From contig JAFCFS010000001.1 in the NCBI GenBank assembly GCA_017608525.1, forward strand, positions 1,934 to 65,933: a DNA stretch of 64,000 nucleotides, written 5' to 3'. The position numbers and the translations under genes are program-made. Shown piece after piece: positions 10,872-58,777 of this stretch. A model generated the notes under the pieces. That model did not search any database and was not told the origin of the DNA. It saw only the letters and a list, made by a program, of their open reading frames with translations. The stretch comes from Candidatus Woesearchaeota archaeon (GTDB taxonomy: Archaea > Nanobdellota > Nanobdellia > SCGC-AAA011-G17 > GW2011-AR17). Numbering within the stretch: position 1 is the first letter of the stretch; each line of letters begins with the position of its first letter.

Positions 10872-11257
10872 CTCACAGATACTATTATTTTTCTCGATCT
10901 TGGTCCATCCAGTTCAACTAGAGCGATGCTTTGCCAAGTACCGAGAAGTAATTTTCCATTTTTAATAGGTACTGTTTCAGACGGACCGAGAATTGCTGCT
11001 TTGATGTGAGCTGCACCATTGTTATCAATTTTATCGTGTTCCCAAATACCTTCAGGAATCAATTTAGATAGTGCATTTAATATATCAGATCTCACATTTG
11101 GATCATAATTCTCGTTGATAATGATTGCTGCAGTTGCGTGTGGTACATATATAGTAACATTGCCTTCTTTCACATCTTTAACAATGTCCTCTATCTCGTT
11201 AGTTATATCAACAATTTCGTATTTTTTATTAGTTTTAATTGTTATTTCCTTTTGCAT
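10868..11257 (-). CDS. YjbQ/UPF0047 family protein (secondary thiamine-phosphate synthase-like fold)
   Basis: 129 aa. VPHATAAIIINENYDPNVRSDI ... AAHIKAAILGPSETVPIKNGKLLLGTWQSIALVELDGPRSR matches the conserved UPF0047 pattern. Confidence 0.6.
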   Translation of the reverse strand: MQKEITIKTNKKYEIVDITNEIEDIVKDVKEGNVTIYVPHATAAIIINENYDPNVRSDILNALSKLIPEGIWEHDKIDNNGAAHIKAAILGPSETVPIKNGKLLLGTWQSIALVELDGPRSRKIIVSVR

Positions 11258-13080
11258 ACTTCCACCCTTACTGCTGCTTTTTTCAAATTTGGTTCATAAA
11301 CCACTGGTGAAAATTCAATCGGTATTAATTTGTTAACAAGTATATTTCTATAATGATAAGGAACTATTATTAAATTTTTTGGAACTTTTTTACTTAGCCT
11401 CACATTTGCTTTAATTTTTCCAACTCTAGAAACAAGACATATTAATTCACCATCTTCTAAACCAATTTCTTTACCATTCTCCTCACTAATAAAACATTCC
11501 GGATGGGAAATCTCTCTCAATTTTTTAGAAGACACGCTCATGTCGCTTGTACAAAATTGATAGGGTCTTCTTGCAGTTGAGAGAATAAAAGGATAATCTT
11601 TAGATGTTGGTTCTTCAAAACCTTCGAACTCAGCAACATGATACTTTTTAAACCTAATCACTCTTTCAACAAATTGACTTTCCCCTTTTATCAATTTTTC
11701 AATGTTAATTTTGTTATAGCCCACAACATTTTTGATGATATCTTTGGTTATGCTTAAAGTATTTGTATAATTATAATGCTTACCTACATATTTTGCAAAT
11801 TCCTTTAAAATAACCCAGTTTGGTTTCGAATCAAACAATGGATTAATTGCGTTTTTAAAATACCTAACTCTACTTTCTGCACTTGTAAATGTTCCGTCTA
11901 CTTCTGCAAAACTGGAACTTGGTAGAACAACATCAGAAAATTCCATTGTTAAATTTTTGTAGCTACATTGAAGAACAATAAATGCCTTCCTAAAAACCTT
12001 ATGAACTTTATTCAAATCCGGCATCGATTGTGCTGGATTTGTCTCAAGAATCCAAAATGCTTTAGAAGGATAAAGAAAGACAGACTCTATAATAGTGTTT
12101 CCATTTTTTCCAGGAACGAGACCCATATCTTGAACACCTTGTATATTTGCCTTCCCCCTCATTGGAATTATTTTACCATTTTTTGCTATTACTAAATTTG
12201 CTGCTGAAAAAACATTTTCTACACCATAGGTATGTTGTGTTAAGACCATCCCATACATCAAACAAAAATTTTTACTTTTCTCTATTTCGTCAACGACTTT
12301 TCTAAAATCGTTTTTTTTAATTCTGCACAACTCACAAACGTATTTTTCTGTGTATTTCATTAAGAATTCAGAAATTTTTTCTTCCACTTTAACATTATTT
12401 CTCAACACCAACTCATTCAAAATGCCATTTAAAAAGATAATATGCGAGCCAGGATAAATTTTAACAAAAATATCAGCATATTCTGTAGTCTCGTCTTCTG
12501 TTTGTTTTACACAAATTATCTTGCAACCCTTCTTTTTTGCATCCAGAATTTTATTAAATGCGACTGGATAATTAGATTTTGGATTCGAGCCTGTTATAAG
12601 AATACAATCAGCATTTTTTATGTCTTTAAGCATCGCATGCGGCATTGCACTAATCCCAAAAGCCTCTTTAAGAGCATAACATGTTGAAGCATGACATAAC
12701 CTTGCACAACTGTCAATATTCTCAGTTTTGTAGATTTCGCGTGCAACTTTTTGAAAAAGAAATGCATCCTCATTTGTTGCTGGGCTTGAACCATAGAAAG
12801 TTATATCACTGGGATCAAACTTTTCCAAATTTTTAGCTATAAATTCAAATGCTTCTTCCCAATTTACTTCTCTCAATTTTCCATTTTTTCTCACCATTGG
12901 CTTTTTAATTCTGTTTTTAGAGTAAATTACTTCGTGAACAGTTAATCCCTTAATGCACGGTTTTCCCTCACTTACAGGATCATCTTTCACCGGCAAAGCA
13001 GAAATTATTTTCCCTTTTTCTATTTTTAAGTATAAAGCACAACCACAACCACAGTATGGACAAATTATTTTCTTAATCAT
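11242..13080 (-). CDS. molybdopterin (bis-MGD) oxidoreductase, formate dehydrogenase alpha-like, Cys-type
   Basis: N-terminal 4Fe-4S motif CPYCGCGCALYL...GKPCIKG. Putative active-site region CARLCHAST (Cys in place of Sec, no in-frame TGA). C-terminal molybdopterin-binding-like beta domain. Confidence 0.7.
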   Translation of the reverse strand: MIKKIICPYCGCGCALYLKIEKGKIISALPVKDDPVSEGKPCIKGLTVHEVIYSKNRIKKPMVRKNGKLREVNWEEAFEFIAKNLEKFDPSDITFYGSSPATNEDAFLFQKVAREIYKTENIDSCARLCHASTCYALKEAFGISAMPHAMLKDIKNADCILITGSNPKSNYPVAFNKILDAKKKGCKIICVKQTEDETTEYADIFVKIYPGSHIIFLNGILNELVLRNNVKVEEKISEFLMKYTEKYVCELCRIKKNDFRKVVDEIEKSKNFCLMYGMVLTQHTYGVENVFSAANLVIAKNGKIIPMRGKANIQGVQDMGLVPGKNGNTIIESVFLYPSKAFWILETNPAQSMPDLNKVHKVFRKAFIVLQCSYKNLTMEFSDVVLPSSSFAEVDGTFTSAESRVRYFKNAINPLFDSKPNWVILKEFAKYVGKHYNYTNTLSITKDIIKNVVGYNKINIEKLIKGESQFVERVIRFKKYHVAEFEGFEEPTSKDYPFILSTARRPYQFCTSDMSVSSKKLREISHPECFISEENGKEIGLEDGELICLVSRVGKIKANVRLSKKVPKNLIIVPYHYRNILVNKLIPIEFSPVVYEPNLKKAAVRVEVCKRK

Positions 13081-13113: not shown

Positions 13114-13560
13114 TTACACAAGGAAAATAATTAAGCCGATAAGTAAAAAAGAAAGTATTATCTCTACTATACCTCCAGTTTTAAGAAAACCCCTCACTTT
13201 AAATTTAAATGGGTAAAATGGCCTAATTCCTTCTACAGTTAAAGCATCTAAAATAATATGGGATGAAAAACCAATTAAGAAAGGGTTTGAAAAATCTCTG
13301 AAAAAAGCAAAAAGAATGAAATAACATAAAAACATAAAAATTAAAGAGTGAAAAAATCCTCTGTGTGAAAAAAAGAAATTAATCATAGAAGAAAAAGGCT
13401 TGAATAACTTTCCAATTTTACTTTTTTTCAAATCTATATCCGGCACTAAAGAAGATATAGCAATTATTACAAAATGAAGATAGCTAAAATTTAGACCAAT
13501 AAATTTGTTTAGGCAAAGCCCAAAAAATATCGAAAATAGCAAATGGGTTATGAATATCAA
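13114..13560 (-). CDS. membrane-bound metal-dependent hydrolase-like protein (YdjM/DUF457-like)
   Basis: 148 aa, 4-5 TM segments. SHIILDALTVEGIRPFYPF resembles the DUF457 His/Asp motif. Confidence 0.4.
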   Translation of the reverse strand: MIFITHLLFSIFFGLCLNKFIGLNFSYLHFVIIAISSLVPDIDLKKSKIGKLFKPFSSMINFFFSHRGFFHSLIFMFLCYFILFAFFRDFSNPFLIGFSSHIILDALTVEGIRPFYPFKFKVRGFLKTGGIVEIILSFLLIGLIIFLV

Positions 13561-14546
13561 TTTTCTATTCTTTTTAACACTTCTCCAGGATTGAGCTCAA
13601 AAACGTCTCTTGCCATGAATTCAAGTCTTTCTTCAAACATATTATTTTTTGTAACTTTCCCCACAACCCCAACTTGCATACCAAGAAGTTTTTCTCTTAT
13701 TGGTTCAAAAATTTCATAATCTTGCCTTATTTTTTCCAGCTCTTCCCTTTGCAAACCGATTAATTTTTCTGCATTTTCTCTAAAGCAAACAACCCTTATA
13801 TTTTCTGTTCCGTCGTCCAAAAAGAAAGTTAATACTGGTATTAGTACCTCATTTACAAACCCGTGTTCTTTGCATGAAAATTTATCGCCCACCAATTCTA
13901 ATCTCTTTCCACATTCCGGGCAAGCTTCAAAAAAAGAAGGTCTAAAAACTTGGACTATTGTGCCTTCAATTTTGGCAAAATCATTTTCTTTTAAATCCTT
14001 AATTTTCTTTTTTTGGATTTCCAATTTTGAAGAAACATTTTCTATTTTTTCACCCTCAGGATTAACTTCTATTTCTGCAAGACTTCCAAGATGGATTTCT
14101 TTCACCCCATTATTTTCCTTAACATACCCACTTTTTATTAGAAGAGTATCACCCTCTTTAAATAAACCATTTTCGATTTTGTTTATAAGTTTTTCATCCC
14201 ATACAACAACTCTTGTAGTTCCTGTTTCATCGCCAAACAAAAAAGAAACAATCCTTCCTTCCCTTTTAGGAGTCTTAAAATTTTTAACCTCGTAGATTTT
14301 AATAACCTTCCCTAAAACCTCCACATTCCTCAGCACTGAAGATAGCTGATTAATTTTAAATCTTTTTAATGTTTTATCAATAAGTTTTACTCCCAATTCG
14401 TTAGCAACTATGTAAGCAGCACCTTCTTTAGATATTAAATAAGATAGTTGCTCCAGTTTTTCTTTAATCAATTCTTCAACTTTACTCTCCTCTAAATTTT
14501 TATCTTTACAAATTTTTTTAATTATTTCCTCATAGGCAAGTTGCAT
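13557..14546 (-). CDS. replication protein A (ssDNA-binding, OB folds plus zinc ribbon)
   Basis: Two OB-fold-like segments (RIVSFLFGDETGTTRVVVWDEKL; IRVVCFRENAEKL) and a CPECGKR...CKEHG C4/C3H zinc ribbon, as in archaeal RPA. Confidence 0.6.
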   Translation of the reverse strand: MQLAYEEIIKKICKDKNLEESKVEELIKEKLEQLSYLISKEGAAYIVANELGVKLIDKTLKRFKINQLSSVLRNVEVLGKVIKIYEVKNFKTPKREGRIVSFLFGDETGTTRVVVWDEKLINKIENGLFKEGDTLLIKSGYVKENNGVKEIHLGSLAEIEVNPEGEKIENVSSKLEIQKKKIKDLKENDFAKIEGTIVQVFRPSFFEACPECGKRLELVGDKFSCKEHGFVNEVLIPVLTFFLDDGTENIRVVCFRENAEKLIGLQREELEKIRQDYEIFEPIREKLLGMQVGVVGKVTKNNMFEERLEFMARDVFELNPGEVLKRIEN

Positions 14547-14599: not shown

Positions 14600-15514
14600 T
14601 TACGGTTCAAGCCATATTTTTACTGGCTCTATTTTATCTTCGTATGCAAAGTTTTTTAAGGTTATTGTTAATTCACTTGGATCGGGTCCTAGTATTGAAG
14701 GATCGATTTCCGTGATTCTACATGAAATTGTCCTTGATTTGTCTTCCCTCGATAGTGTAATCTCTCCATTGTTTTCACAGCTAACAGGGAATGCACCTTT
14801 CACTTCCACCTTTAGCTCTTCTTTCGGCCTTTTCTCGTATTTAAAGCAATCACCCAATGATTTAACCAAACGACCTGTTCCAACATTTTTAATTGTAATT
14901 TTAAAGTTTAATTTTCCAACACCATTCTCCACTTTCACGACTCCCTGCTCCAAATCCACAACTTGAACCGATGATGCTGGATTCGAACCCGTAGGAAGAT
15001 TTTCACCAATCTCTGTTGCTTTATCTGTATAATAAATATTTGCTTTTACATTAATTGGAATCTCATAACAATATTCACCCTTAATTTCTTTTGATATCTT
15101 CGTTGTTATTTCCCCAACATATTTAATCGGTCCTAAACTAATCTCTTTTGGATAAGAATCACAAGTAGCTGGATCAACACCACTTAACTCTGGATTTGTT
15201 GCTTGTTTTGCACCTACGAAAAAAGCAGGAATGGCAGCATCACCAATTAGCCTTAGTTTCACTTTTCCTGCCGGGATATCTTGTTGGAGTTTATTTGTCA
15301 GTTCAACCATAACATCAATATCTTCACCAGGTAAGTAGGTATCAATTTCAGAGGAAACAGGCGCATCCGGAGCAAATCTAGCCTCTATCGCTTTGGATCC
15401 TGTACATTTATAGTAACCAGGCGCCGTAGTTTTCTTCCTTTCGCATTCTTCAGCACCAAAAACAAGAAATAGGGAAACCATCAATATAAATGTTAATGCA
15501 ATTTTTCTCTTCAT
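14600..15514 (-). CDS. secreted hypothetical protein (signal peptide)
   Basis: N-terminal MKRKIALTFILMVSLFLVFGA signal/anchor, Cys-containing mature part. Third gene of a co-directional exported-protein operon. Confidence 0.45.
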   Translation of the reverse strand: MKRKIALTFILMVSLFLVFGAEECERKKTTAPGYYKCTGSKAIEARFAPDAPVSSEIDTYLPGEDIDVMVELTNKLQQDIPAGKVKLRLIGDAAIPAFFVGAKQATNPELSGVDPATCDSYPKEISLGPIKYVGEITTKISKEIKGEYCYEIPINVKANIYYTDKATEIGENLPTGSNPASSVQVVDLEQGVVKVENGVGKLNFKITIKNVGTGRLVKSLGDCFKYEKRPKEELKVEVKGAFPVSCENNGEITLSREDKSRTISCRITEIDPSILGPDPSELTITLKNFAYEDKIEPVKIWLEP

Positions 15515-15563
15515 ATCAACACCCCCATAATTTAAATCGATTTGATTCTATATAAATTTTTGG

Positions 15564-16469
15564 TTAGTAAACAGTGAAAGTACTCGATTTTATCTTCTCA
15601 AATGAATAGGAAACCTCTATTTTAATTTTTGGTTGATAATTTTTGTATAGGTAAGCTCCACTTTCGTCAAAGAGATTAAATTTCATATTACAATCAACTT
15701 CGGCTTCACCATCCTTAAATACCGCCCTTCCACAATAAAATTCTCCATAATCTGGAACGTCTTTAAGAATAACCTCTACTTCCTCCTCATATTCTTGCAA
15801 AATACAGCCATATTCCCTAAAACTCTCCAGACCCAAAATATTCCCATCCTTTGATTTTTTAAGTTTGATATGGAAAACTACATCAGCAAAATTTTTCTCG
15901 GGCATTAAAGTTTCAGTAATTTGAACAATCTCAATTGGAGCTTTGGATGAAGTTTTCAATAAATTTCCCTCTTGCCTGCATTCCGGTCCATTTAATTCCT
16001 TTTTAATGCACGGCTTGAATTCACCAGTTGTTTTATAAGAATACCTTGCTGAAAATGTTAGTGTATAAGCCCCGGATGCATCGGGTGAAATGCTAAAAGG
16101 TCCAAACTCTATTGTCTCCTCTCTATAATTTGGCGAATTGGGATTTGTACTTATTTCGAAAGGGACACATTCGCAATCTCTAAAACCATAAAACGTTTCT
16201 CCATCAAGACCAAAAATACACAACGTGCCTTCAGTATCAATATCTCCAGTATTTTCTATCCTAACTGCTGGTCTAAATTCATATTCTTTATTGATTTTTT
16301 CTCTGTTTTTCGGGAATAAAATATAAAAATCCACATCACCACCAGATACTGAAATTTTTCCTCCTTTTGGTAATCCAGGAAGTTTTTCTACTAAATGCTG
16401 AAAATTCTCTACACAACCCCCAAAGAAGATGCAACATGCAATTAAAATAACAAGCATTTCCTTTTTCAT
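15564..16469 (-). CDS. secreted hypothetical protein (signal peptide)
   Basis: N-terminal MKKEMLVILIACCIFFGGCV. Multiple Cys. 4-nt overlap with the upstream gene. Confidence 0.45.
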   Translation of the reverse strand: MKKEMLVILIACCIFFGGCVENFQHLVEKLPGLPKGGKISVSGGDVDFYILFPKNREKINKEYEFRPAVRIENTGDIDTEGTLCIFGLDGETFYGFRDCECVPFEISTNPNSPNYREETIEFGPFSISPDASGAYTLTFSARYSYKTTGEFKPCIKKELNGPECRQEGNLLKTSSKAPIEIVQITETLMPEKNFADVVFHIKLKKSKDGNILGLESFREYGCILQEYEEEVEVILKDVPDYGEFYCGRAVFKDGEAEVDCNMKFNLFDESGAYLYKNYQPKIKIEVSYSFEKIKSSTFTVY

Positions 16470-17584
16470 TTTTCTATCGTTACATATTCTTTTTTCTCTT
16501 TTGGGCCATAAACATAGCTTGCTTTAACAATATACATTTTTTTCAAATACGGGCCAACAACAATATTCTCAGGTATTTTTAAAAAGCATTCAAAATTTAT
16601 AACTTCTTTTCCTCCTTCAAATTTTAAACTTTCAAGTATGTCATTTGGGGCAACATATTCTGTAAAACCTCTTAACTGGGATGCTTTAACAAATGGGCAA
16701 ACAACAGAAGGGTTCTTTGAAAGTTCTGAATCAATCTCTATTCCATCAGGCAAGTACAATCTAATTTCTGTAATGTTTATAAGTTTACCATCCCACATAT
16801 TTCTAAGAATAATCCCAACAAAAGGGGTATAACCTTCTCCAATAATCACTGGCTGTTCTGTGTCAGTTACACCAATAGATATTTCAATTGGTTCACCATT
16901 ATAAGTTACCCTTATTGGTTTAGAAACGTCTATACCGAAATGCCTAAAAAAATCTTCCCCTTTAAGTCTCTCGAAAATTCTGCTTGTCGTTATAAACACA
17001 TCAATCTTTGCTTCCTGTTCGATTGGAAATGTAAATCCACCTACTATTTCTTCTTTTCCACTCAGATTCTCAGTTTTTGAAATCAAACACCTGACATTTG
17101 TTCTTCCATATGGTGAAATTATTGGATTCTTGGGTATAATTTCTCCCTTTATATCTTCATAAGGCATACTACAATAAAATTGAGGGAATATTTCTTTTTC
17201 GTAATTTTTTAATTCAATCTCATATTTTAAAGTTATTGGTGTTCCCGGTGGAATCCTTTTACTACCGACCAATTTGAAATCTTTGAATACTAAACCCCTT
17301 ATAGTTGAGGACTTATTTAGTTCTGTTCCCCAACCGCTTTCTCCAATTTTTTTAGCCCTCTCGAGCTGTTCAGAGTACCAAAATAGGTATCTCTTCATAC
17401 CTTCAAAGGCATGCGATATTTTTTTCTTCCCTTCTTCACTAGTTGCCCAATAATAAGCTACAACACCCAAATATAATAATCCAGCCAACAAAATAAGAAT
17501 TGCGATGATTTTAATAATAGATTTAATGGACCTCGGACCTGGAAAATATGCTCTATAATAGAATTTAGGACTTTCTTGCTCCAT
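16466..17584 (-). CDS. membrane-anchored extracellular hypothetical protein
   Basis: Single N-terminal TM (IIKIIAILILLAGLLYLGVVAYYWAT) followed by about 320 aa with no cytoplasmic-type motifs. First gene of the exported-protein operon. Confidence 0.45.
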   Translation of the reverse strand: MEQESPKFYYRAYFPGPRSIKSIIKIIAILILLAGLLYLGVVAYYWATSEEGKKKISHAFEGMKRYLFWYSEQLERAKKIGESGWGTELNKSSTIRGLVFKDFKLVGSKRIPPGTPITLKYEIELKNYEKEIFPQFYCSMPYEDIKGEIIPKNPIISPYGRTNVRCLISKTENLSGKEEIVGGFTFPIEQEAKIDVFITTSRIFERLKGEDFFRHFGIDVSKPIRVTYNGEPIEISIGVTDTEQPVIIGEGYTPFVGIILRNMWDGKLINITEIRLYLPDGIEIDSELSKNPSVVCPFVKASQLRGFTEYVAPNDILESLKFEGGKEVINFECFLKIPENIVVGPYLKKMYIVKASYVYGPKEKKEYVTIEK

Positions 17585-45248: not shown

Positions 45249-45416
45249 TTATGATATAATGCCTTTTTCTTTTTTGACTTTTATCCTGTATTTAGAGAAT
45301 CTGTCAAGTGGACTGAACCTTGCTGGTTTTGGAGTGACTGTTTTTTTTCCACATTTAGGGCATTTCTTCTTTAAGGTATATTCTTTACATTCAGAACAAT
45401 AAAATATTCTGTTCAT
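45249..45416 (-). CDS. nop10: H/ACA ribonucleoprotein subunit Nop10
   Basis: 55-aa MNRIFYCSECKEYTLKKKCPKCGKKTVTPKPARFSPLDRFSKYRIK, the canonical Nop10 zinc ribbon with PxRFSP. Not in the ORF track (too short). Its ATG overlaps the aIF2alpha stop (ATGA). Confidence 0.7.
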   Translation of the reverse strand: MNRIFYCSECKEYTLKKKCPKCGKKTVTPKPARFSPLDRFSKYRIKVKKEKGIIS

Positions 45417-46204
45417 TTCTCCTCTATTGAAATTTCTCCCCTGTTCTTTTGAAAGAATTCAATTATTGTATTTTTCGTTTCCTCCAAGACTTTTTCGACT
45501 TCTTTATAATTTTTAGCTTTCGCCATCAATTTATACCTTGGTGCTCCTAAGTAGGTTATTTCTATGTTATACTTTTTTCTTTTAGCAAATTCTTCACCCG
45601 CCTTTAATGCATTTTTAATTACCTCAATACCATTAGGTTCGTAGCATTTCATCATTATTACAACTGACTTTGTTACTTCTGGGGGCTTTATTCTTTCTCT
45701 TATGAACTCTACCAATGGCCCAATGATTTCTTTTTTCACTTTCAATTCTTTAAGAACATTTTCTCCCTTATTCAATATTTCTTGAAATGCAGCATGCAAA
45801 GAACCGTATCTTTCAATAAGTCTGTAGCCAACTTCTTCATAAATTTCTTTCAGGCTCTTTTTTAGTTTATTGCCAACCAATTCAAGTATTTTTTCAGCTT
45901 TTGTTTCTAGTTTATATTCTTCATTCTTAGCTTTTGCCGCTTGTAGTGAAACCCTTCTTAATGAAAGATCGAACTGATTCTTACCTGGATATATTTTAAG
46001 AACCTTACAAATTATTCTTTTTCCTTCCACAACATAATCTCTTATATTTCTTATTCTCCCCGGTGCAATTTCTGAAATGTGAATCATTCCCTCTAGATTT
46101 TCATACTCTTCCAAATCAACAAAAACAGAATGCGGTAATATTTTTTTAACAACGCATATTACTATTTCATTCTCCTCTGGTGTTCCTTTCTTTTTATAGA
46201 ACAT
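45413..46204 (-). CDS. eif2a: translation initiation factor 2 alpha subunit (aIF2-alpha)
   Basis: S1 domain with GMIHISEIAPGRIRNIRDYVVEGKRIICKVLKI, plus helical and alpha-beta C-domains. The start is taken at MFYKKKGTPEENEIVIC. Confidence 0.85.
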   Translation of the reverse strand: MFYKKKGTPEENEIVICVVKKILPHSVFVDLEEYENLEGMIHISEIAPGRIRNIRDYVVEGKRIICKVLKIYPGKNQFDLSLRRVSLQAAKAKNEEYKLETKAEKILELVGNKLKKSLKEIYEEVGYRLIERYGSLHAAFQEILNKGENVLKELKVKKEIIGPLVEFIRERIKPPEVTKSVVIMMKCYEPNGIEVIKNALKAGEEFAKRKKYNIEITYLGAPRYKLMAKAKNYKEVEKVLEETKNTIIEFFQKNRGEISIEEK

Positions 46205-46205
46205 T

Positions 46206-46391
46206 TTATTCAAGTATTTCAAGTATCCTTGCTTTTATTTTTGATTTTCCACCAGTGCTTTCAGCCAGTACTTTATTACAAACCAAGCATTTTACTGTTG
46301 TAGCGCACTTTCCAAAAATTATTTGTTCATTTTTGCATTTAGGGCACCTTACTTTTACAAATTTACTTTTTGGTTCTGTTATGTATTCCAT
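46206..46391 (-). CDS. rps27e: ribosomal protein S27e
   Basis: VRCPKCKNEQIIFGKCATTVKCLVCNKVLAESTGGK, the C4 zinc ribbon of eS27. Confidence 0.85.
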   Translation of the reverse strand: MEYITEPKSKFVKVRCPKCKNEQIIFGKCATTVKCLVCNKVLAESTGGKSKIKARILEILE

Positions 46392-46393
46392 TT

Positions 46394-46711
46394 TTATTTG
46401 ATTTCAATTCTTTTTGCCCTAAATCCTGAAGATTGGACCATAATTTTGCCACAAACGCTGCACTTAAACCTTAAATCTGTTTTTTTGCTGCTTTTCACTC
46501 CATATCTTTTCCAAGAAGAGACTGCTCCTTTCGAAGTTTTTCCTTTGTTTCCGGCACCTCTATCAAGGCCCCTTCTTCTCATTCTAAGCCTAGAACCCCA
46601 ACTCATTGGATGTGCTTTGTTCCTACCCATAGATTTTGCCTGCGATACTGTCATCTCTTGATATTTGCCGCAATATTTGCAATACTTCCTTATTTTCTTA
46701 GGCATTTTCAT
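46394..46711 (-). CDS. rpl44e: ribosomal protein L44e (eL42)
   Basis: MKMPKKIRKYCKYCGKYQEMTV...FKCSVCGK, the eL42 zinc-ribbon pattern. Highly basic. Confidence 0.8.
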   Translation of the reverse strand: MKMPKKIRKYCKYCGKYQEMTVSQAKSMGRNKAHPMSWGSRLRMRRRGLDRGAGNKGKTSKGAVSSWKRYGVKSSKKTDLRFKCSVCGKIMVQSSGFRAKRIEIK

Positions 46712-47294
46712 CTTTTATTGCAACTCCCCTATTAAGCAATATTTTTGCATAGTCAAGTGGAATTTCAGCAGTTTCTCCTTTTTTAAATGGCCCATATTTA
46801 TTTTTCTTATCATCAACAAATGAAACTGTGTCCTTTAAAAATTTTATTGTTAGCGTATTCTTTTCATTCTCTCTTTTTAATTCTTTCGGTTTAGATGAAA
46901 ATTCAGTTAAATTAAACAATATTTTTCTTCTAAACTTATTTAAAACTTCAATCAACTCGTTTAAGAATTCTTTTTCCTCTGGTAGAAGTCCCTCAACTTC
47001 TCTACCTTCATTAACTCTTGAACATAATAAAGCATGCTCGATTATTTTGTTCTCCCTTTTTTCGTATAATTCCTTCAGTAACCTTTTTGCATTTTCAAGT
47101 TGTTTTTTAATATTTTTAATTTCAGACACAAATATTCCCGATTTTTCCTGGTTTTCGAGAATCTCTCCCTTCTCCCTTAAATAATCTTTAATATCCTCAA
47201 AAAAGTTTTCACCTAAATTTTGTAAATTCTTTTCTCTTTTTTCCTTCATTAACAATTCGTATATTTTATCATAAGTTATTATTCTCTTTGCCAT
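46698..47294 (-). CDS. GINS subunit (Gins51/Gins15-like)
   Basis: N-terminal alpha-helical A-domain (ITYDKIYELLMKEKREKNLQNLGENFFEDIKDYLREK) and C-terminal small beta B-domain (VSFVDDKKNKYGPFKKGETAEIPLDYAKILLNRGVAIK), as in archaeal Gins51. Motif/architecture resemblance only. Confidence 0.5.
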   Translation of the reverse strand: MAKRIITYDKIYELLMKEKREKNLQNLGENFFEDIKDYLREKGEILENQEKSGIFVSEIKNIKKQLENAKRLLKELYEKRENKIIEHALLCSRVNEGREVEGLLPEEKEFLNELIEVLNKFRRKILFNLTEFSSKPKELKRENEKNTLTIKFLKDTVSFVDDKKNKYGPFKKGETAEIPLDYAKILLNRGVAIKDENA

Positions 47295-50321: not shown

Positions 50322-50452
50322 GGGCCCGTAGCTTAGCCTGGTGGAGCATCGGTCTTATATGGCACCATCGGCAACAGCCTAAGAGAGCCGAGGGTCAAGG
50401 GAAGACTCCAGCTCTTGCTGAAGTCTCTTGAATTCAAATCCCTTCGGGCCCA
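50322..50452 (+). tRNA. candidate tRNA-Ile(TAT) carrying two introns (26-nt at 37/38 and ~31-nt in the T-arm at 53/54)
   Basis: Exons assemble to a 74-nt cloverleaf: GGGCCCG-TA-GCTT-AGCCTGGTG-GAGC-A-TCGGT-CTTATA[intron]A-GCCGA-GGGTC-AAGGG[intron]TTCAAAT-CCCTT-CGGGCCC-A. Loop CTTA pairs with intron TAAG (BHB-like). The T-arm intron carries its own hairpin (GACTCCAGC/GCTGAAGTC). Confidence 0.5.
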
Positions 50453-51862
50453 CTATTTTTTAATTTTTTCAACATATTCTTCTATCTTCAACAATTTTGG
50501 TTTTTTGGCCTTCGCTCTTATAAATAAAATTACTAAGAAAACAACTAGTAGGATAATTACCACTACAATTGTTCTTAATATTTTTTTCTTTTTTTCCTCT
50601 CTTAATTCTTCTTTTGGTGTTTTGGTTTCTGTATAATTCACAATAACTACCTCCTTTTCCTTAGAAATATTTAATTCAACCAATTCTGTTTTATTTTTAA
50701 CTTCTTCTGCAACGTTAGTGAAAAGAAAAGACATTGGAAATTCTATCCTTCCTTCTTTACTGGAAACAATCAGATTTCCATAGTATAGTTTTCCAGGAAT
50801 TGCGTTCTTATCTTCGTTAACTACAATATTGAGGCTAGTTGTTTCGTAAGGTTGCAGTACATTGATTGTTTTTTTGTCTATTTTTACAATTTCATTAAGA
50901 TTACCATCTAACTTAATAGAAATCTGGTTTATTGGGTATTCTCCATCGTTTTTGAATTTAATTTCGCCAATGAAAATTTTGTTAACTGGAGCTCTTTTAC
51001 TTAATGATTTATTTTTCATCAAAAATTTAAGTTTAAATTCTTTCTCAACTATTTCGCAAGGTCCACAAACTCCACCACAATCAACACCCTCTTCACCCTC
51101 ATCCTTTACACCATTATTACAACAATCGTCAATTGCTTCGCATGGTCCACCACAATCAACACCTCTCTCACCTTGGTTTTTAATTCCATCGTTGCATGTT
51201 GGAGCTTCTTTCTCCTCTTTTTTAATGATTACTGGAATTTCGTAAAATTTGTTTCCGTAATTTAAAATGACACTCGTTTCTTTTACAGTTATATTTTTTA
51301 CATCAACTGAGAAATATACATTTAGTGAAGAAAGTGGTTCTATTATTAAACTCTCTCTAAATGGCCTAATTGCATCCTCGTTTGATTTTGGTTTTACTTC
51401 GGTTTTGTTGAGGCCCTTATTGCTTAATTTTATGGCGAAAGTTTTCGTGTCTTCCGTTACAAATACAATTGAAGGTTTTATACACAAGTATGGTTCCTCA
51501 TTTTTTATTGTAAAATTTTTATAAAAAGAAAATGTCTTTAGCGTTGCATTTATTCTTTTTTTATAAGAGATCACAATACTACAATCGCTCTCCTCAAGCT
51601 CTGGTAATTCAAAAGATAAAAAATACGTGTTATTCTTTAGATGAAAAATTAAAAGACCAATATCTATTTTTGTTTCGTTACAAATCAATTTTACATTCTC
51701 TGGTGTAAGTAAAATTTCTGAATAAACCCAAAATTGAACACTTTCGTATTCTGAATAAGTATCTCTTTCTATTTTAATTGTGTCTTCACCATAAACGAAA
51801 GGAAAGAGAAAAACAAACAACAAAAATATACAAAATAATTTACTTTCTTTGAAAAATTTCAT
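50453..51862 (-). CDS. secreted/surface protein with Cys-rich modules and C-terminal TM anchor
   Basis: N-terminal signal (LFCIFLLFVFLFPFVYG), a C-terminal TM (ILRTIVVVIILLVVFLVILFI), and an internal module PTCNDGIKNQGERGVDCGGPCEAIDDCCNNGVKDEGEEGVDCGGVCGPCE shared with the next gene. Confidence 0.5.
   Translation of the reverse strand: MKFFKESKLFCIFLLFVFLFPFVYGEDTIKIERDTYSEYESVQFWVYSEILLTPENVKLICNETKIDIGLLIFHLKNNTYFLSFELPELEESDCSIVISYKKRINATLKTFSFYKNFTIKNEEPYLCIKPSIVFVTEDTKTFAIKLSNKGLNKTEVKPKSNEDAIRPFRESLIIEPLSSLNVYFSVDVKNITVKETSVILNYGNKFYEIPVIIKKEEKEAPTCNDGIKNQGERGVDCGGPCEAIDDCCNNGVKDEGEEGVDCGGVCGPCEIVEKEFKLKFLMKNKSLSKRAPVNKIFIGEIKFKNDGEYPINQISIKLDGNLNEIVKIDKKTINVLQPYETTSLNIVVNEDKNAIPGKLYYGNLIVSSKEGRIEFPMSFLFTNVAEEVKNKTELVELNISKEKEVVIVNYTETKTPKEELREEKKKKILRTIVVVIILLVVFLVILFIRAKAKKPKLLKIEEYVEKIKK
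51053..51204. repeat. 152-bp direct repeat copy A (97% identical to 52393-52544)
   Basis: Aligned by eye, with 4 mismatches. Encodes the shared 50-aa Cys-rich module in the two adjacent paralogous surface-protein genes. Confidence 0.85.
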
Positions 51863-53679
51863 ATTCTAAATTTATATTCTGGTTTTTCTGGCAGTGATTC
51901 GAATATTCCTTTTGGTCCTCCTTCTTCTTTCTTACCTTTTTTTGGAGGTGTTAAGAATTTTTTATAGAATATGAAGCCAATTATTAGGAGCAAAACAATC
52001 ACAACTCCTATAATTGCCCAATAGTTAATTCCACCCTCCTCCTCGACTTCAGGAGGTGTAGGTGCGGGAGTTTCAGGAGCCTCTCTAGCTCTTTTTTCTT
52101 CCTCACAATCTTCAGGACATGTATCTTCATCTTCCGTATCATCGCAAACACCATCTCCACAATAACAATCTGCTGGACAATTTTCGCTATTCTCACCTTC
52201 ATCAACTTCGCACACATCATTTTCTAAGCATACACATGGATTAACACATGGTCCACCACAATCAACACCTTCTTCAAATCCGTTTTGAATTCCGTCATGG
52301 CATGTGTCCTCACAATCGCTCGGGCAATTTATTACATTTTCACCTGCATCAATATCGCACTCCCCATCATTATCACAAACTTCCATTTCCTCTTCGCAAG
52401 GTCCACAAACTCCACCGCAATCAACACCCTCTTCACCCTCATCCTTTACACCATTATTACAACAATCGTCAATTGCTTCGCATGGTCCACCACAATCAAT
52501 TCCTCTTTCACCTTGGTTTTTAATTCCATCGTTGCATGTTGGAGTATGCGGAACCTCTATTGTTGTGATTAATGCATCTGGAAATGCAGCGTACAAAACA
52601 AGAGCAGTACTTTTAACATCTTCACCCCAGCTACCATCAGCTCTTTGGTGATTTTCTAACCATGTTATTCCATTTGTAACTTCATCAGCATAGTCTGGAT
52701 TTTCTTTTAATGCAAGAATAGCAAATGCTGTATCTAAAGGATTTTTATTCCAGCTTCCATCAGGTTTTTGCAACTTTTTTAAATTTTTTAAATATTCCTC
52801 ATCGTTTGTTAAAAGGTATAAAATAGAGTTATCCAAAACTCTACTTTCATCATAGTTTTCTTTGAGATAGAGGTTTACATTAGATTCACTGTTTAATTCT
52901 TTAAGAGCCCATCCACCATATAAACTTGCTTCAACATTGCAAGACTTACGAAATCTCATACCAAAACAACCGTTGTTTATTCTTAATATTGCAGAAGTTC
53001 CCCTCACGCTTTCTAAAAGGTAATAAGTATTGCCTTCCTTGTACAATAAGGTTATTATCGCATCAGGTAAATCGCAGTCAATTTCTATTACTAAAGAAGG
53101 ATTTCTATCAACAAGATTCGTTCTTTGTAAATGTCTATTCAAATTCAGGAATGTTGTGTTCCCGTGATCTGGAAAATAACCCTTATTCACTTTTATCTCC
53201 ACATCTCTTATTATCTCATTTAATGTATAAGAAATCGTACATTTTCCCTCACCAGAGGTTGAAATCTGCAATAACCAATCACCAACCTTTAATCCTGCAG
53301 ACTGGGACTGAACCAACCAATTTTCGATTTCGCTTATGTTTTCATAACCCATCAAATTAAGTGCAATTGCTACCATTGCTGTATCTTTCACATTACATCG
53401 CTGAGGCCAACAATTAAGCTTTTCATTCCTTTTGGACATCAACCAATCGTAAATATCTCCTGCTGTAACTGTGTCGCCGTATGTATTAAATGTTAATAAA
53501 GCTAAAGCGGTGTCAAAAACATTGCCGTATGCTTTTTCACTATCATAGGTTTTAACTAACCAGTCATATGCTCTTTGTTCACTAAAATTCGCAACTGCAT
53601 GAACACTAGGAATTAACAGGAACGAAACAAGAAATACAAAAAATAGAACCTTTTCTCTCATAAAAATTCCTAATATCAA
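51859..53679 (-). CDS. secreted/surface protein with prenyltransferase/squalene-oxidase-like alpha/alpha-toroid repeats, Cys-rich repeat modules and C-terminal TM anchor
   Basis: Signal peptide; repeats KPDGSWNKNPLDTAFAILAL and RADGSWGEDVKSTALVLYAA (QxxDGSWG-type); tandem Cys-rich modules (CNDGIQNGFEEGVDCGGPC, CGDGVCDDTEDEDTCPEDC); a Pro/Glu linker; C-terminal TM YWAIIGVVIVLLLIIGFIFY. Confidence 0.5.
   Translation of the reverse strand: MILGIFMREKVLFFVFLVSFLLIPSVHAVANFSEQRAYDWLVKTYDSEKAYGNVFDTALALLTFNTYGDTVTAGDIYDWLMSKRNEKLNCWPQRCNVKDTAMVAIALNLMGYENISEIENWLVQSQSAGLKVGDWLLQISTSGEGKCTISYTLNEIIRDVEIKVNKGYFPDHGNTTFLNLNRHLQRTNLVDRNPSLVIEIDCDLPDAIITLLYKEGNTYYLLESVRGTSAILRINNGCFGMRFRKSCNVEASLYGGWALKELNSESNVNLYLKENYDESRVLDNSILYLLTNDEEYLKNLKKLQKPDGSWNKNPLDTAFAILALKENPDYADEVTNGITWLENHQRADGSWGEDVKSTALVLYAAFPDALITTIEVPHTPTCNDGIKNQGERGIDCGGPCEAIDDCCNNGVKDEGEEGVDCGGVCGPCEEEMEVCDNDGECDIDAGENVINCPSDCEDTCHDGIQNGFEEGVDCGGPCVNPCVCLENDVCEVDEGENSENCPADCYCGDGVCDDTEDEDTCPEDCEEEKRAREAPETPAPTPPEVEEEGGINYWAIIGVVIVLLLIIGFIFYKKFLTPPKKGKKEEGGPKGIFESLPEKPEYKFRI
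52393..52544. repeat. 152-bp direct repeat copy B
   Basis: See copy A; same reading frame on the minus strand. Confidence 0.85.
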
Positions 53680-54360: not shown

Positions 54361-55440
54361 TTGATGAAAATTAGGAATCTACTTTTGATTATATTTGTAA
54401 TTTTCCTTTTTACTCTTGCATATGCACAAGAAAAAAAATATGTAGTTATAGAGTTCGAAAGCTTTGGAGGCAATAAGACGGTAACTATCAATTTAAAAGA
54501 AATATTTGGGAAGAGTTACTATTTTGTTCATAGCGAAACTGAGCATGTCGACATTAAAATCAATATTGGGGAGGGTACTGCAGTATTAAAGGCGAAAGAT
54601 CCTAGATGGAAAGGAAAAGAAAGGGTAGTTTTTGCAATAAATAAAAAGGCCCTCGAAGAGGCTCTTTTAATAGAGGGCCTAAAAAAACAACCTGAAAAGA
54701 AAGAAAAGAAGGTTGGGAAAGAAGAGGTTCCAAAGTTAAAAATCGATGTTGAAGATGTAATCCATGCACTGGAGCCGATCCTAAAAAAAAGCTTTATTGG
54801 GATACTGCATGACATACCGCTGGTTGATGCAAAAATATATGCTTATAAAACAAACGATTCATTAATTCTTGACCTAAACAGAGAAATAATCATGAATATA
54901 AGCTTTGCACAATTTGGTTACAAACCGACTATTAAATTAAACATAACTTTGAATAAAACGGGCTTGGCCCCCCCCAAATACGAGCCAAAAGATACTGAAA
55001 ATTATTATCTTGCAGTTGTTATCTTCCTTACAATTACAGTAATTGGATTTTATTTAAAATTTGGAGAAAATCTATTCCCAAAATTCAAAAGGAGAAAAAA
55101 AGAACTCAAGGAAGAGAAGTTGTTGGAGCATATTAAAATTCAGAAAGAGAATATAATCGGAAAGATAAAAGCTTTGAAAGGTGAAAAAAATATTGAAAGG
55201 GCATATAAAAGTGCTGTTAAATCAATGAACGATTTCTTAATAGAGTTTTTAAAGCTGAAAGATTTGACGAACAAAGCCGTAATTTCAACAATGAAAAAGA
55301 AAAAGTATCCGCAACAATTAATAGATGAGGTTAGGTCATATTTAAGAAAGTCCCAAAAGCTTTATAGCCCTGAAGGTGTAAATAAAAAAGATCTAGACGA
55401 ACTATTGGAAAAAATAGAAGACATAGTTAAAAAAATCTAA
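54361..55440 (+). CDS. membrane protein with N-terminal signal/TM, internal TM and coiled-coil C-terminus; unknown function
   Basis: Hydrophobic N-terminus (LLLIIFVIFLFTLAYA), a mid TM (YYLAVVIFLTITVIGFYL), and a Lys/Glu-rich helical tail. Confidence 0.4.
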   Translation: MMKIRNLLLIIFVIFLFTLAYAQEKKYVVIEFESFGGNKTVTINLKEIFGKSYYFVHSETEHVDIKINIGEGTAVLKAKDPRWKGKERVVFAINKKALEEALLIEGLKKQPEKKEKKVGKEEVPKLKIDVEDVIHALEPILKKSFIGILHDIPLVDAKIYAYKTNDSLILDLNREIIMNISFAQFGYKPTIKLNITLNKTGLAPPKYEPKDTENYYLAVVIFLTITVIGFYLKFGENLFPKFKRRKKELKEEKLLEHIKIQKENIIGKIKALKGEKNIERAYKSAVKSMNDFLIEFLKLKDLTNKAVISTMKKKKYPQQLIDEVRSYLRKSQKLYSPEGVNKKDLDELLEKIEDIVKKI

Positions 55441-55441
55441 A

Positions 55442-56767
55442 ATGAGATTAATTATCTTTTTGTTTTTGCTATTTATTGATCTTTGTCAAAGTGCAAAAGC
55501 GGAAACAATTTTAATTTTTGGAAGAGAATACTCAATTGTTGTTCTTGTACCATTCATCCTAATTATTTTATCTTTTGCATTTCTTACTTTTATCCAATTG
55601 AAAAGAAAAAAGGAAAAAATTATTGAAATTCTGAAAAGTTTTCTGGCTTTATTCATTGCTATTCATGGAGTAGTTGAAAAACTTGGTATTAGGAAGATCT
55701 TTGAATATTTGAAAGAAAAATTGCCAAGAAAGGAGAAAAAAATCATTGTTGAAGAAAAACCGAAAAAAGTTATAGATTATGAAAAAGAGGTGGGAAATAT
55801 TAGAAAAGGGATTAAAAGACATAGCCCAATGGTTAGCTTCGAAAAAATTGCAAAACTTTCAAGAGATTTCTTCAAGGAATATTTAGGAATAGAATACGAA
55901 GCTACTTATGAAGAACTTGAAGAAAAATTGCGTGAAAGAAATAAAAAAATGGCTGATTTTGTTAGAGATATTTCATTCATAAAATACAAAGGAAAAAATA
56001 TCACGAGGGGGGATGTAAGAAAACTACTAAACGATTTTGAGAAATTTGTTACAAAAAAAAGAAAGAAAAAAATTGGTGTTACAAAGAAAGGAATATTACA
56101 AAGAATAATAGAGGAGGATAAAAAAATACTCCTAGCAATAAAAGATTTAATAGAGGGTGCAAAGGAGAAAGATAAACTTAATAGGCTAAACAAACTTCTC
56201 ATTGAGGAAAGAATAATACTAGCGAGAGATTTCAGGAAAGTTAAAAGTGCCTATAGAAAAATTCTAAGATTGTACTCCAGATTAAATGAAGAAGAGAAGA
56301 AGAAAATCTTCCCAAAGATAATAGAATTTTACAAATTTATAAGTGTTCATCCAATGATTACAGAAAAGCAGAGAAAGGATTTAGAAGTTTTCATGAAAAA
56401 AATAAGCAAAGAGGGAAACTTTAGTTTTCTCTCAAAAATTAAGGAAGCTGTTCTTAATGAAGAGAAAATTATAAGCGAGAAAGTTATGGAAAGAATAGAT
56501 AAACTTCATGAAGAAGAAAGAAAGCTCTTGGAAAAAATATCCGAGCTGTCAAAAAAAGAAGGTGCAAGAATTGAACTTTCTGAAAAATTGGAAAAAGAAA
56601 TTGAAAAATTAATAGAACTTGGAAAAAAGGCATTGGAGGAAGGAAAGAAAGAGAAAGCAGAAATACATTATAAAAAAATCAAAGAGCTATATTACAAACT
56701 CAAGAAAGAAAGCAGGGAGAAGATAAAAGATAAAATAAATAGATTTGTTGAATTATTTTCTAAATAG
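55442..56767 (+). CDS. membrane-anchored coiled-coil protein, unknown function
   Basis: Signal-like N-terminus, a TM (VVLVPFILIILSFAFLTFI), then about 370 aa of heptad-like Lys/Glu-rich sequence. Starts 2 nt after the previous gene. Confidence 0.4.
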   Translation: MRLIIFLFLLFIDLCQSAKAETILIFGREYSIVVLVPFILIILSFAFLTFIQLKRKKEKIIEILKSFLALFIAIHGVVEKLGIRKIFEYLKEKLPRKEKKIIVEEKPKKVIDYEKEVGNIRKGIKRHSPMVSFEKIAKLSRDFFKEYLGIEYEATYEELEEKLRERNKKMADFVRDISFIKYKGKNITRGDVRKLLNDFEKFVTKKRKKKIGVTKKGILQRIIEEDKKILLAIKDLIEGAKEKDKLNRLNKLLIEERIILARDFRKVKSAYRKILRLYSRLNEEEKKKIFPKIIEFYKFISVHPMITEKQRKDLEVFMKKISKEGNFSFLSKIKEAVLNEEKIISEKVMERIDKLHEEERKLLEKISELSKKEGARIELSEKLEKEIEKLIELGKKALEEGKKEKAEIHYKKIKELYYKLKKESREKIKDKINRFVELFSK

Positions 56768-58042
56768 CTTTTTCTTCTTGAATGCTTTAAATGCATAATT
56801 TACAGGATTCTTAAATACTGCACATTCTTTATTTGCATCACATATTCCCATATCTTTGTAGTAAGAACTATTGCTGCAATTCGGTGGCAAAAGTTTGTTT
56901 TTCTGTTGTTTATGCCATCTCAACTGGGCAGCTATATAACCCTGTTTCAGCGGAGGATTGTTTTTGCTGTTCCATTCCCATACTAATTTTTCTATAGACC
57001 CAAAATCCCAACCAACGCTTCTTAAAAAATTTATCAGAATGAACAAGCTCCTTTTTCTTCCATCATTTAAACCAGCTGCAAGTATTTTTTTAATGCATGG
57101 TGGAAAAAATTTTTCACCTATTGCACTCTCTGGAATGAAACTTTTTTTCTCAATGTTGCTTAGTACGGGTTTATCAATTTTCTTAAGTGTGTCAAATGCC
57201 TGTATTATCAACTTTTTTGCCTCCTCCAGTTTTGTACTTTTTGCATCAAGAAACTTCAGATTTGCATCGACATTTTCAGGAAGGGCCATTTCTCTCTTAA
57301 AATTTTTAATCTTCTCAGGATCAATAGGCAAGCTAACTAACCCGCTTTTTTCATGGAGCGAATAAGGACACCTGTATAAATGCCTACTAGAAATAAGAAT
57401 AGTGTCTATTTCTATTACACTAAATGGGTCAAAGTTGCCGTTTGGAAAAATTTCTTCTTCCTTTTTTCCTGTGTCTTTTAGAATGCTTTCAATATCAACC
57501 TTCTTCATTATAAGTTTTGAAAGACCTTCCCTAACAAAATTTTTTAGATAAAGAGATATTATTTTTGGACCATCTGGAAAAAGCAATCTTGTTTCAACAC
57601 CATTAACTTCTGGAGGAAAAGCCTCAAAAGGAACTGCAATATGAAATCCCTTATTCCCGCTAAATTTACAACTAATGTTTTCCACGCCAAAAAATCTTAA
57701 TGCTTCAACAAGAATCTCCGCTGTCAGTTTTGCACAATCCCATATTTTCGTATCTATATCCAAAACAAGATCCCACCCAACCCTCATATCATCGAGTTGT
57801 TTTTTACTCATTCCCGACCTCAATTCTAAAGGATTTGCCCACTTCTCTTCAGAAACATGGAATGATGTCGCACCCTGCTTAACAAACTCCATTATATCTG
57901 CTTTAAAATTCAAAACATCAGGCCTTCTAAAATTCTTCCCAAAAAACATAATCCCAACTTCTCTGTTCTTGGAGGAAAATAAAATTGCTTCTTGTATTTC
58001 AGCCCTCGAATAATAATCCATTACATACTTTTGGTTAATCAT
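56753..58042 (-). CDS. priS: DNA primase catalytic subunit (PriS-type AEP) with C-terminal Cys-containing PriL-CTD-like extension
   Basis: AEP motifs WDLVLDIDTK (DxD) and SGNKGFHIAV (SGxRGxH). The C-terminal ~110 aa carry 4 Cys (PPC...NCS...GIC...KEC) in a helical region, reminiscent of the PriL Fe-S domain fused in Nanoarchaeum-type primases. Confidence 0.65.
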   Translation of the reverse strand: MINQKYVMDYYSRAEIQEAILFSSKNREVGIMFFGKNFRRPDVLNFKADIMEFVKQGATSFHVSEEKWANPLELRSGMSKKQLDDMRVGWDLVLDIDTKIWDCAKLTAEILVEALRFFGVENISCKFSGNKGFHIAVPFEAFPPEVNGVETRLLFPDGPKIISLYLKNFVREGLSKLIMKKVDIESILKDTGKKEEEIFPNGNFDPFSVIEIDTILISSRHLYRCPYSLHEKSGLVSLPIDPEKIKNFKREMALPENVDANLKFLDAKSTKLEEAKKLIIQAFDTLKKIDKPVLSNIEKKSFIPESAIGEKFFPPCIKKILAAGLNDGRKRSLFILINFLRSVGWDFGSIEKLVWEWNSKNNPPLKQGYIAAQLRWHKQQKNKLLPPNCSNSSYYKDMGICDANKECAVFKNPVNYAFKAFKKKKLFRK

Positions 58043-58079: not shown

Positions 58080-58475
58080 TTATTTTTTCAGCTTCTCTAT
58101 CTCCTCTTGTAAATCCTTAACTTTAATCGCCTGCCTTTGCAACTCCATTTCCAGCCTAACCAGCAAATCATTTAATTCACGAATCTGCTTTTCTATAAAC
58201 TCCCTTGCTTCCTGAACGCTTTTAACCACTATAATGTTTGAACCAACATTTATAAGAATCTCGTCATTTTTCTTTAATTTTGTTTTAATATAGAGCCCGC
58301 CACCTATTTGCGATAATATCTCTGTTCCCTCCTCCAATTTTTCTATTTCTTCCAGAGAATTTTTTATAGTTTTCAAGGTTATAATTTCTTGATCTATAAC
58401 GCTTAGTTCATTGTTTATTAATCTCATCTGTTCTTTGTGGGTTAGCAATTCTGCTTTTTTCTTTTCTATACTCAT
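58080..58475 (-). CDS. pfdA: prefoldin alpha subunit
   Basis: 131 aa: coiled coil, two beta hairpins (IGGGLYIKTKL ... EILINVGSNIIVVKS), coiled coil. Confidence 0.7.
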   Translation of the reverse strand: MSIEKKKAELLTHKEQMRLINNELSVIDQEIITLKTIKNSLEEIEKLEEGTEILSQIGGGLYIKTKLKKNDEILINVGSNIIVVKSVQEAREFIEKQIRELNDLLVRLEMELQRQAIKVKDLQEEIEKLKK

Positions 58476-58777
58476 TTTTTACTTTCCCTTTTTTCTTTTG
58501 GTTTTTCTTGTTTTTTTGCTTCTTTTTCCTTTTTCTTGATTTTTTTCTTCACCTCAATTCCAGCTTTTTTCATTGCTTTGAGAATTTCTTCTGTTGTGGC
58601 ATTTTTTTTGATTTTTAGAACTTTATCGGTAGGTTCTATATGCCTTATGTTACATTTTCTTCTTCTAACATTGCCGTCTATTAAAACATATTTATCGTTT
58701 AAAACATCAACAACAACTGCAATTTCCCCTGCATCTCTTCCTGCTATTTTAACACAAACTCTACCTATCTCTATCAT
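58472..58777 (-). CDS. rpl14e: ribosomal protein L14e
   Basis: KOW-like N-terminus IEIGRVCVKIAGRDAGEIAVVVDVLNDKYVLIDG and a Lys-rich tail. Confidence 0.75.
   Translation of the reverse strand: MIEIGRVCVKIAGRDAGEIAVVVDVLNDKYVLIDGNVRRRKCNIRHIEPTDKVLKIKKNATTEEILKAMKKAGIEVKKKIKKKEKEAKKQEKPKEKRESKK

Follow-up and report, generated by a model that had tools for sequence, protein, structure and literature searches.

A single-chain gene with PriS-type and PriL-type primase domains in a Woesearchaeota-type archaeon

The gene at positions 56753–58042 on the minus strand of a 64,000-nucleotide stretch of contig JAFCFS010000001.1 (Candidatus Woesearchaeota archaeon, assembly GCA_017608525.1; the whole stretch is called the window here) raises the question of whether its product is an ordinary primase small subunit, PriS, or a primase that joins parts of both subunits in one chain. 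A preliminary description made from the letters of the DNA alone had read the product as a PriS with a helical C-terminal extension carrying four cysteines, had proposed that this extension might be the iron-sulfur (Fe-S) domain of the large subunit, PriL, fused to PriS as in Nanoarchaeum-type primases, and had raised the possibility that the genome lacks a separate priL. The analyses reported below support that interpretation as correct, but ordinary for the lineage. We consider it very likely that the gene encodes the single-chain replicative chromosomal primase of a DPANN archaeon of the Woesearchaeota/Nanoarchaeota type, composed of a PriS-type archaeo-eukaryotic primase (AEP) domain and a PriL C-terminal domain of the Fe-S type.

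Two primase domains in one polypeptide

The open reading frame (ORF) of the fused primase gene is complete from ATG to stop and encodes 429 amino acids (aa) plus the stop codon, and a 100% identical protein (P0001) is present in public collections (NCBI, JGI). Every string quoted in the preliminary description was located in the translation: WDLVLDIDTK from residue 90, SGNKGFHIAV from residue 128, and the cysteine-containing strings FPPC (C316), NCS (C389), GIC (C401), and KEC (C407), whose cysteines are the 4 of the protein's 7 that lie within the last 114 residues. An alignment (A1) of 120 homologous sequences at ~50% identity is the basis of all conservation counts given here, and the AlphaFold2 model, for which 120 homologs served as input, has a mean predicted local distance difference test (pLDDT) score of 91.5 and shows two well-folded domains. 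The chain runs from the PriS domain through a linker to the PriL C-terminal domain, and nothing corresponding to the N-terminal domain of PriL is present. The PriS core and the PriL-type domain are separated by a gap of ~55 residues (257–312), most of which is a single helix and a disordered loop. Within it, the inter-domain linker (57107..57217, minus strand) consists of a helix at residues 276–290 followed by a flexible loop from 291 to ~312, with pLDDT falling below 50 at residues 291–300 of the AlphaFold2 model. The length of the linker varies in the family, from 29 to 44 residues between positions 284 and 316.

The PriS-type catalytic domain spans residues 1 to ~256 (57275..58042, minus strand) and is identified as a minimal AEP core without a zinc knuckle by Pfam, Foldseek, pLDDT, and the distribution of cysteine columns in the alignment. 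The Pfam family PF01896 (DNA_primase_S) covers residues 95–241, its 36.3 bits exceeding the gathering score of 26.8 (E=9.2e-9), and the domain is also matched by NCBIfam PriS models and by human PriS chains in the PDB. With the full-length model as query, Foldseek retrieved eukaryotic and archaeal PriS, Prim-PolC, and LigD-pol domains at E ~1e-7, and pLDDT is mostly above 90 across the domain. The matches to the full-length model in the PDB were exclusively of the PriS, Prim-Pol, and LigD kinds, and the absence of PriL from among them is attributable to the larger catalytic domain masking the smaller one.

The catalytic residues bear out the AEP core that the preliminary description had called unambiguous. 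Motif I (hhhDhD) is present as LVLDID (57752..57769, minus strand), with both metal-binding catalytic aspartates, D95 and D97, invariant in 120/120 homologs. Motif II (sxH) is present as SGNKGFH (57641..57661, minus strand), in which S128, G129, and H134 are invariant in the alignment. The motif III region (hD; EID), EIDTILISSRHLYR (57371..57412, minus strand), contains D213, R220, H221, and R224, all four invariant in the 120 homologs, and the stretch after motif III, SRHLYRCPYSLHEKSG, pairs with INHLLKSPFSVHPKTG of human PriS. No cysteine column conserved at 90% or more was found in the catalytic domain of the 120 homologs, with Cys 103, 125, and 225 all unconserved. The domain therefore lacks the zinc-binding motif found in canonical archaeal and eukaryotic PriS and is a minimal AEP core; that motif is not required for AEP membership.

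The C-terminal domain is helical and comprises residues 313–429 (56756..57106, minus strand), that is, ~115 residues, or ~115–130 if counted from the linker. Five NCBIfam PriL models match residues ~257–425 (best E=5.5e-4), and the longer of these matches map to profile positions ~194–336 of ~350–360, which corresponds to the last third of PriL. When the C-terminal domains of 29 family members were combined into a profile, it matched Pyrococcus abyssi PriL (9f26_B) at E=1.8e-6, with S. solfataricus PriL as a second, weak match. In the alignment to P. abyssi PriL, FPPCIKKIL pairs with FPPCVKNAL, and LPPNC..YYKD..IC..NLCKKIKNPVNY pairs with FPPNC......LC..KHCKYVRNPLTY, so that all four cysteines of the window protein's extension line up with cysteines of P. 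abyssi PriL. The Pfam PriL family PF04104 is matched by 20 of the 29 homologs' C-terminal domains taken alone (best E=8.5e-10), and many full-length homologs carry precomputed matches to both PF01896 and PF04104. The modeled domain has the helical fold of a PriL C-terminal domain. Together, these results support the C-terminal extension being a homolog of the PriL C-terminal Fe-S domain in both sequence and fold, as the preliminary description had proposed.

Shortly after the first of the four cysteines lies R329-K-R331-S-L-F334 (57041..57058, minus strand), an R-x-R-x-x-F motif which, from its conservation and its spacing relative to a characterized enzyme discussed below, is a predicted binding site for the initiating nucleoside triphosphate (NTP) or the primer's 5' end. 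R331 is found in 119/120 homologs and F334 in 120/120, and every homolog has K or R at position 329.

The four cysteines and the likeness to NEQ395

Each of the four C-terminal cysteines is a predicted ligand of a [4Fe-4S] cluster. The first, Cys316 (codon 57095..57097, minus strand, coordinates verified), stands in FPPC and is invariant in 120/120 homologs. The second through fourth, Cys389, Cys401, and Cys407, form the pattern PPNC-x11-C-x5-C (56822..56878, minus strand), recognizable from its conservation and from the PPNC...LC...HC of P. abyssi PriL. C389 and C407 are likewise invariant in 120/120, and C401 is present in 106/120. All 14 exceptions at C401 have a replacement cysteine, in 7 cases one residue later and in 7 cases three residues after C407, and four cysteines are kept in at least 119 of the 120 homologs. 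Seven homologs (P0005, P0015, P0027, P0030, P0045, P0053, and P0114) have a lysine at 401 and a new cysteine that gives C-x-x-C-K-N-P. The number of cysteines being kept while one of them moves points to a metal site. Of the 90 homologs that fit the spacing pattern, 65 have a first cysteine-to-cysteine interval of 72, versus 73 in the window protein. The preliminary description had placed all four cysteines in predicted helices, and in this respect it needs amending: the four are present and conserved, but in the AlphaFold2 model only C316, at a helix start, and C407, in a one-turn helix (405–408), are associated with helices, while C389 and C401 lie in a long loop (380–404).

The closest characterized counterpart is NEQ395 of Nanoarchaeum equitans, a 393-aa fused primase with a PriS domain, a linker helix (251–280), a protease-sensitive loop (281–288), and a PriL domain (285–393) (PMC10250227). 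The architecture is the same as that of the window protein, i.e., an AEP domain, a linker helix, a flexible loop, and a C-terminal PriL-type domain of ~110 aa with no PriL N-terminal domain, which bears out the likeness to Nanoarchaeum-type primases invoked in the preliminary description. Its catalytic residues D87, D89, and H125, of which D87 and D89 abolish activity when mutated (PMC10250227), correspond to D95, D97, and H134 in the window protein. The experimentally verified cluster ligands of NEQ395 are C289, C364, C376, and C384 (PMC10250227), and their spacing of 75/12/8 is nearly identical to the 73/12/6 of the window protein. The same R-x-R-x-x-F motif follows the first cysteine in both, at offsets of 13, 15, and 18 in the window protein and 12, 14, and 17 in NEQ395, where R301, R303, and F306 were chosen for mutagenesis and R301A and F306A served as the defective PriL-domain mutants (PMC10250227). 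The two proteins differ in that NEQ395 is shorter and comes from a hyperthermophile, whereas the 429-aa window protein comes from a mesophile-like Woesearchaeota-type genome with 30% guanine plus cytosine (GC).

NEQ395 is a brown monomer that carries a [4Fe-4S] cluster, and its 410-nm absorbance is lost in the cysteine mutants, although those mutants are still active in vitro (PMC10250227). By analogy, the four cysteines of the window protein (316, 389, 401, and 407) would hold a [4Fe-4S] cluster, and the protein would act as a monomer. One could instead suppose that the extension has a fold like that of the PriL C-terminal domain or of PriX and that its four cysteines coordinate zinc or no cofactor at all, but this is very unlikely given that they line up with the P. 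abyssi PriL cluster ligands, that their spacing corresponds to that of the four verified NEQ395 ligands, and that four cysteines are strictly kept even where one has relocated in 7 sequences.

Several points weigh against reading the extension as a PriL domain in a primase that has no other PriL. The NCBIfam PriL scores of the window protein are far below the curated cut-offs, and its C-terminal domain, taken alone, fails to match Pfam PF04104 at E=0.01 or better. Foldseek, one of the checks suggested in the preliminary description, returned no significant match for the model of the C-terminal domain (best E=1.1), although the top-ranked chains were those of PriL. The correspondence with NEQ395 rests on residue numbers and spacings taken from the published paper. 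Lastly, the search for a separate priL covers only the 64 kb of the window, and it is for this span that the suggested lack of a separate priL can be affirmed. In that search, hidden Markov models of the N-terminal and C-terminal halves of the family, run with all filters disabled on the 229 six-frame ORFs that are 60 aa or longer, found only the primase itself (next best E of 0.2 or higher), and neither Pfam nor NCBIfam placed PF04104, PF01896, or PriX elsewhere among the window ORFs of at least 150 aa. The ORF scans did find an RPA-like protein, GINS51, and many translation genes in the window. With all DPANN Cluster 2 genomes reported to carry the fused version (Dombrowski et al. 2020, PMC7414124) and no other AEP domain found in the N. 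equitans genome (PMC10250227), a separate priL is likely absent from the rest of the genome as well.

The same limit on the search leaves some room for the view that the gene encodes an ordinary small subunit whose C-terminal region is the usual helical or zinc-knuckle subdomain of PriS, with a canonical PriL encoded elsewhere. The annotation of the homologs, often as “DNA primase small subunit domain-containing protein” or “catalytic subunit,” fits this view, as does a Pfam scan of the window protein, which shows PF01896 alone. We nevertheless hold it to be extremely unlikely, and a zinc-knuckle C-terminus was rejected on the grounds that the C-terminal cysteines align with PriL Fe-S ligands and that the N-terminal domain has no conserved cysteines. 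The extension is thus not the zinc-knuckle or helical subdomain of PriS, and its cysteines are conserved in homologs, both of which the preliminary description had named as decisive for its proposal.

Distribution and chromosomal setting

The fused PriS–PriL-type primase is widespread among related genomes. More than 4382 homologs were retrieved at E <=1e-3, the best 120 of which are 418–475 aa long, and the named ones come from Woesearchaeota or Nanoarchaeota metagenome-assembled genomes (MAGs). The closest relative among the matches listed is 57% identical. In a collection of species-representative genomes, at least 586 stretches encode a relative, with the best match at 54% identity. The best 80 of these loci come from MAGs labeled Woesearchaeota, Nanoarchaeota, or Nanoarchaeia, along with some labeled “uncultured Methanosarcinales” by an automated pipeline, which appear to be mislabeled DPANN-like genomes; among these 80 are the chromosome records CP010425.1 (archaeon GW2011_AR15, 1.16 Mb) and OY970338.1.

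In the window, the primase gene lies directly downstream of genes for a KOW-motif ribosomal protein, which we read as L14e, and a prefoldin subunit (58080–58777, minus strand), all co-oriented, and it adjoins genes for a staphylococcal-nuclease homolog and GluRS. By tblastn at 1e-5, at least 23 of the 80 related loci have L14e and prefoldin genes upstream of the primase gene and co-oriented with it, probably an undercount given the shortness of these proteins and that threshold (loci with this order include L001, L008, L019, L028, L037, L043, L062, L063, and L079). The L14e-prefoldin-primase arrangement looks like a conserved operon linking translation, chaperone, and replication genes. GC content is uniform at ~0.30, and Pfam and NCBIfam scans found no integrase or plasmid genes among the window ORFs. 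The conserved housekeeping context and the lack of mobile genes indicate a chromosomal housekeeping gene, not the primase of a mobile element.

This setting is what decides against an origin as a primase-polymerase of a mobile element, comparable to PolpTN2 and the pRN1-type replicases, that acquired a PriL-like or PriCT-like domain independently and is no cellular primase. Such fusions do exist on archaeal plasmids (PMC3973330; PMC3914693). PolpTN2 of the Thermococcus nautilus plasmid pTN2 (PMC3973330) joins a PriS-like domain and a PriL-like C-terminal domain in one polypeptide, as the window protein does. In addition, the window protein has a weak Pfam match to LigD_Prim-Pol (E=1.2e-4, below the cut-off), and the full model has its best template modeling scores (TM-scores) with Prim-PolC. 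Against this, PolpTN2 is plasmid-encoded and of independent origin, and its sequence shows no similarity to those of primases from nanosized archaea (Raymann et al., PMC3914693), whereas the window gene is flanked by L14e, prefoldin, and GluRS genes, the first two in an order shared with its relatives, and those relatives are spread over at least 586 species-level genomes. With that housekeeping synteny conserved and no mobile-element gene in the window, a plasmid or virus primase-polymerase was rejected and has next to no probability in our view.

Two features of the family could be of wider consequence. The Fe-S ligand set might be evolutionarily plastic, with the subclade of 7 of the 120 homologs possibly having an altered cluster environment or redox behavior, and the L14e-prefoldin-primase operon might couple priming to translation and chaperone genes. 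We consider this rather improbable, and neither ligand plasticity nor operon coupling is specific to the window protein, whose ligand pattern is that of the majority.

A second adjacency of replication and translation genes occurs in the window at 45413–47294 (minus strand), where a gene for GINS51 (Gins51_C and Sld5 domains) adjoins that for aIF2-alpha. Neighboring of replication and translation genes is reportedly a subject of a 2008 paper by Berthon et al. (PMC2643942), judging from its title and abstract. Two Lys/Glu-rich ORFs of 359 and 441 aa (54361–56767, plus strand) have hydrophobic starts and no family match, and the second of these converges on the primase gene with the 3' ends of the two overlapping by 15 nt.

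Proposed mechanism, related primases, and other features of the window

The following mechanism for the single-chain primase is carried over in every step from NEQ395 and from heterodimeric primases, and we infer it by homology. D95, D97, and D213 would hold the catalytic divalent metals, while H134, R220, and H221 would hold the incoming NTP, the catalytic domain thereby binding both the template and the NTP used in elongation. The tethered PriL-type domain, through R329, R331, and F334, would offer the site that receives the initiating nucleotide and the primer's 5' end. It would be required in cis for dinucleotide formation, and it may swing on the flexible loop at residues 291–312, with the length of the linker helping to set the length of the primer. 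In two-subunit primases, the PriL N-terminal domain docks PriL onto PriS, and the covalent tether would replace that role of the domain, which is absent here. The [4Fe-4S] cluster predicted on the four cysteines may stabilize or regulate the PriL-type domain. For NEQ395 itself, activity requires Mn2+ and ribonucleoside triphosphates as well as the PriL domain in cis, the length of the primer is influenced by that of the linker, a shorter linker leads to more aborted primers, and the N. equitans genome has no other AEP domain (PMC10250227).

Compared with the heterodimeric PriS/PriL enzymes of P. abyssi (9f26), S. solfataricus (1zt2 and 5of3), and human (4rr2), the window protein has the same PriS catalytic fold and motifs and a C-terminal domain homologous to that of PriL, including the cysteine ligands. 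It differs from them in being one chain, in having no PriL N-terminal docking domain, and in having no zinc-binding motif in its PriS part. The C-terminal domain of eukaryotic PriL is also longer than that of the window protein, with 111 of the 183 residues of the yeast domain aligning.

A PriS-PriL fusion is said to have been described already by Iyer et al. in 2005. Fused primases have been reported from Nanoarchaeota, Nanohaloarchaea, and Parvarchaeota (Raymann et al. 2014, PMC3914693). A later study found fused priS-priL genes in all of DPANN Cluster 2, with Woesearchaeota named, and in Undinarchaeota, treating the fusion as a synapomorphy, in contrast to the canonical priS and priL of DPANN Cluster 1 (Dombrowski et al. 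2020, PMC7414124). The window protein is one more member of this set with no substantive difference, and the fused primase is an already known, lineage-wide state of DPANN Cluster 2, not a peculiarity of the window genome. As a lineage marker, the fused gene assigns its host to DPANN Cluster 2 or Undinarchaeota, and its nearest relatives point to Woesearchaeota/Nanoarchaeota. The family represents the smallest self-contained archaeo-eukaryotic primase and as such lends itself to studies of the cooperation between the PriL Fe-S domain and the catalytic site. NEQ395, characterized in 2023, has already been put to this use, and the window ortholog adds only a mesophile-type, AT-rich representative.

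A few other features of the window deserve mention. Three consecutive ORFs of 304, 301, and 372 aa (14600–17584, minus strand) have no Pfam or NCBIfam match and adjoin, on the same strand, a gene for an RPA-like protein with an oligonucleotide/oligosaccharide-binding (OB) fold (13557–14546, minus strand; tRNA_anti-codon and Rep_fac-A_C). A 606-aa protein (51859–53679, minus strand) has a borderline match to the squalene-hopene cyclase C-terminal family at residues 297–357 (26.3 bits versus a cut-off of 26.1). An Rfam tRNA match of 131 nt at 50322–50452 (plus strand; 34.6 bits), uncalled by ARAGORN, is probably an intron-containing archaeal tRNA. Lastly, a 612-aa molybdopterin oxidoreductase (11242–13080, minus strand; Fe4S4, Molybdopterin, and Molydop_binding domains) is encoded in the window, an unexpected presence beside genes like those of reduced DPANN genomes.

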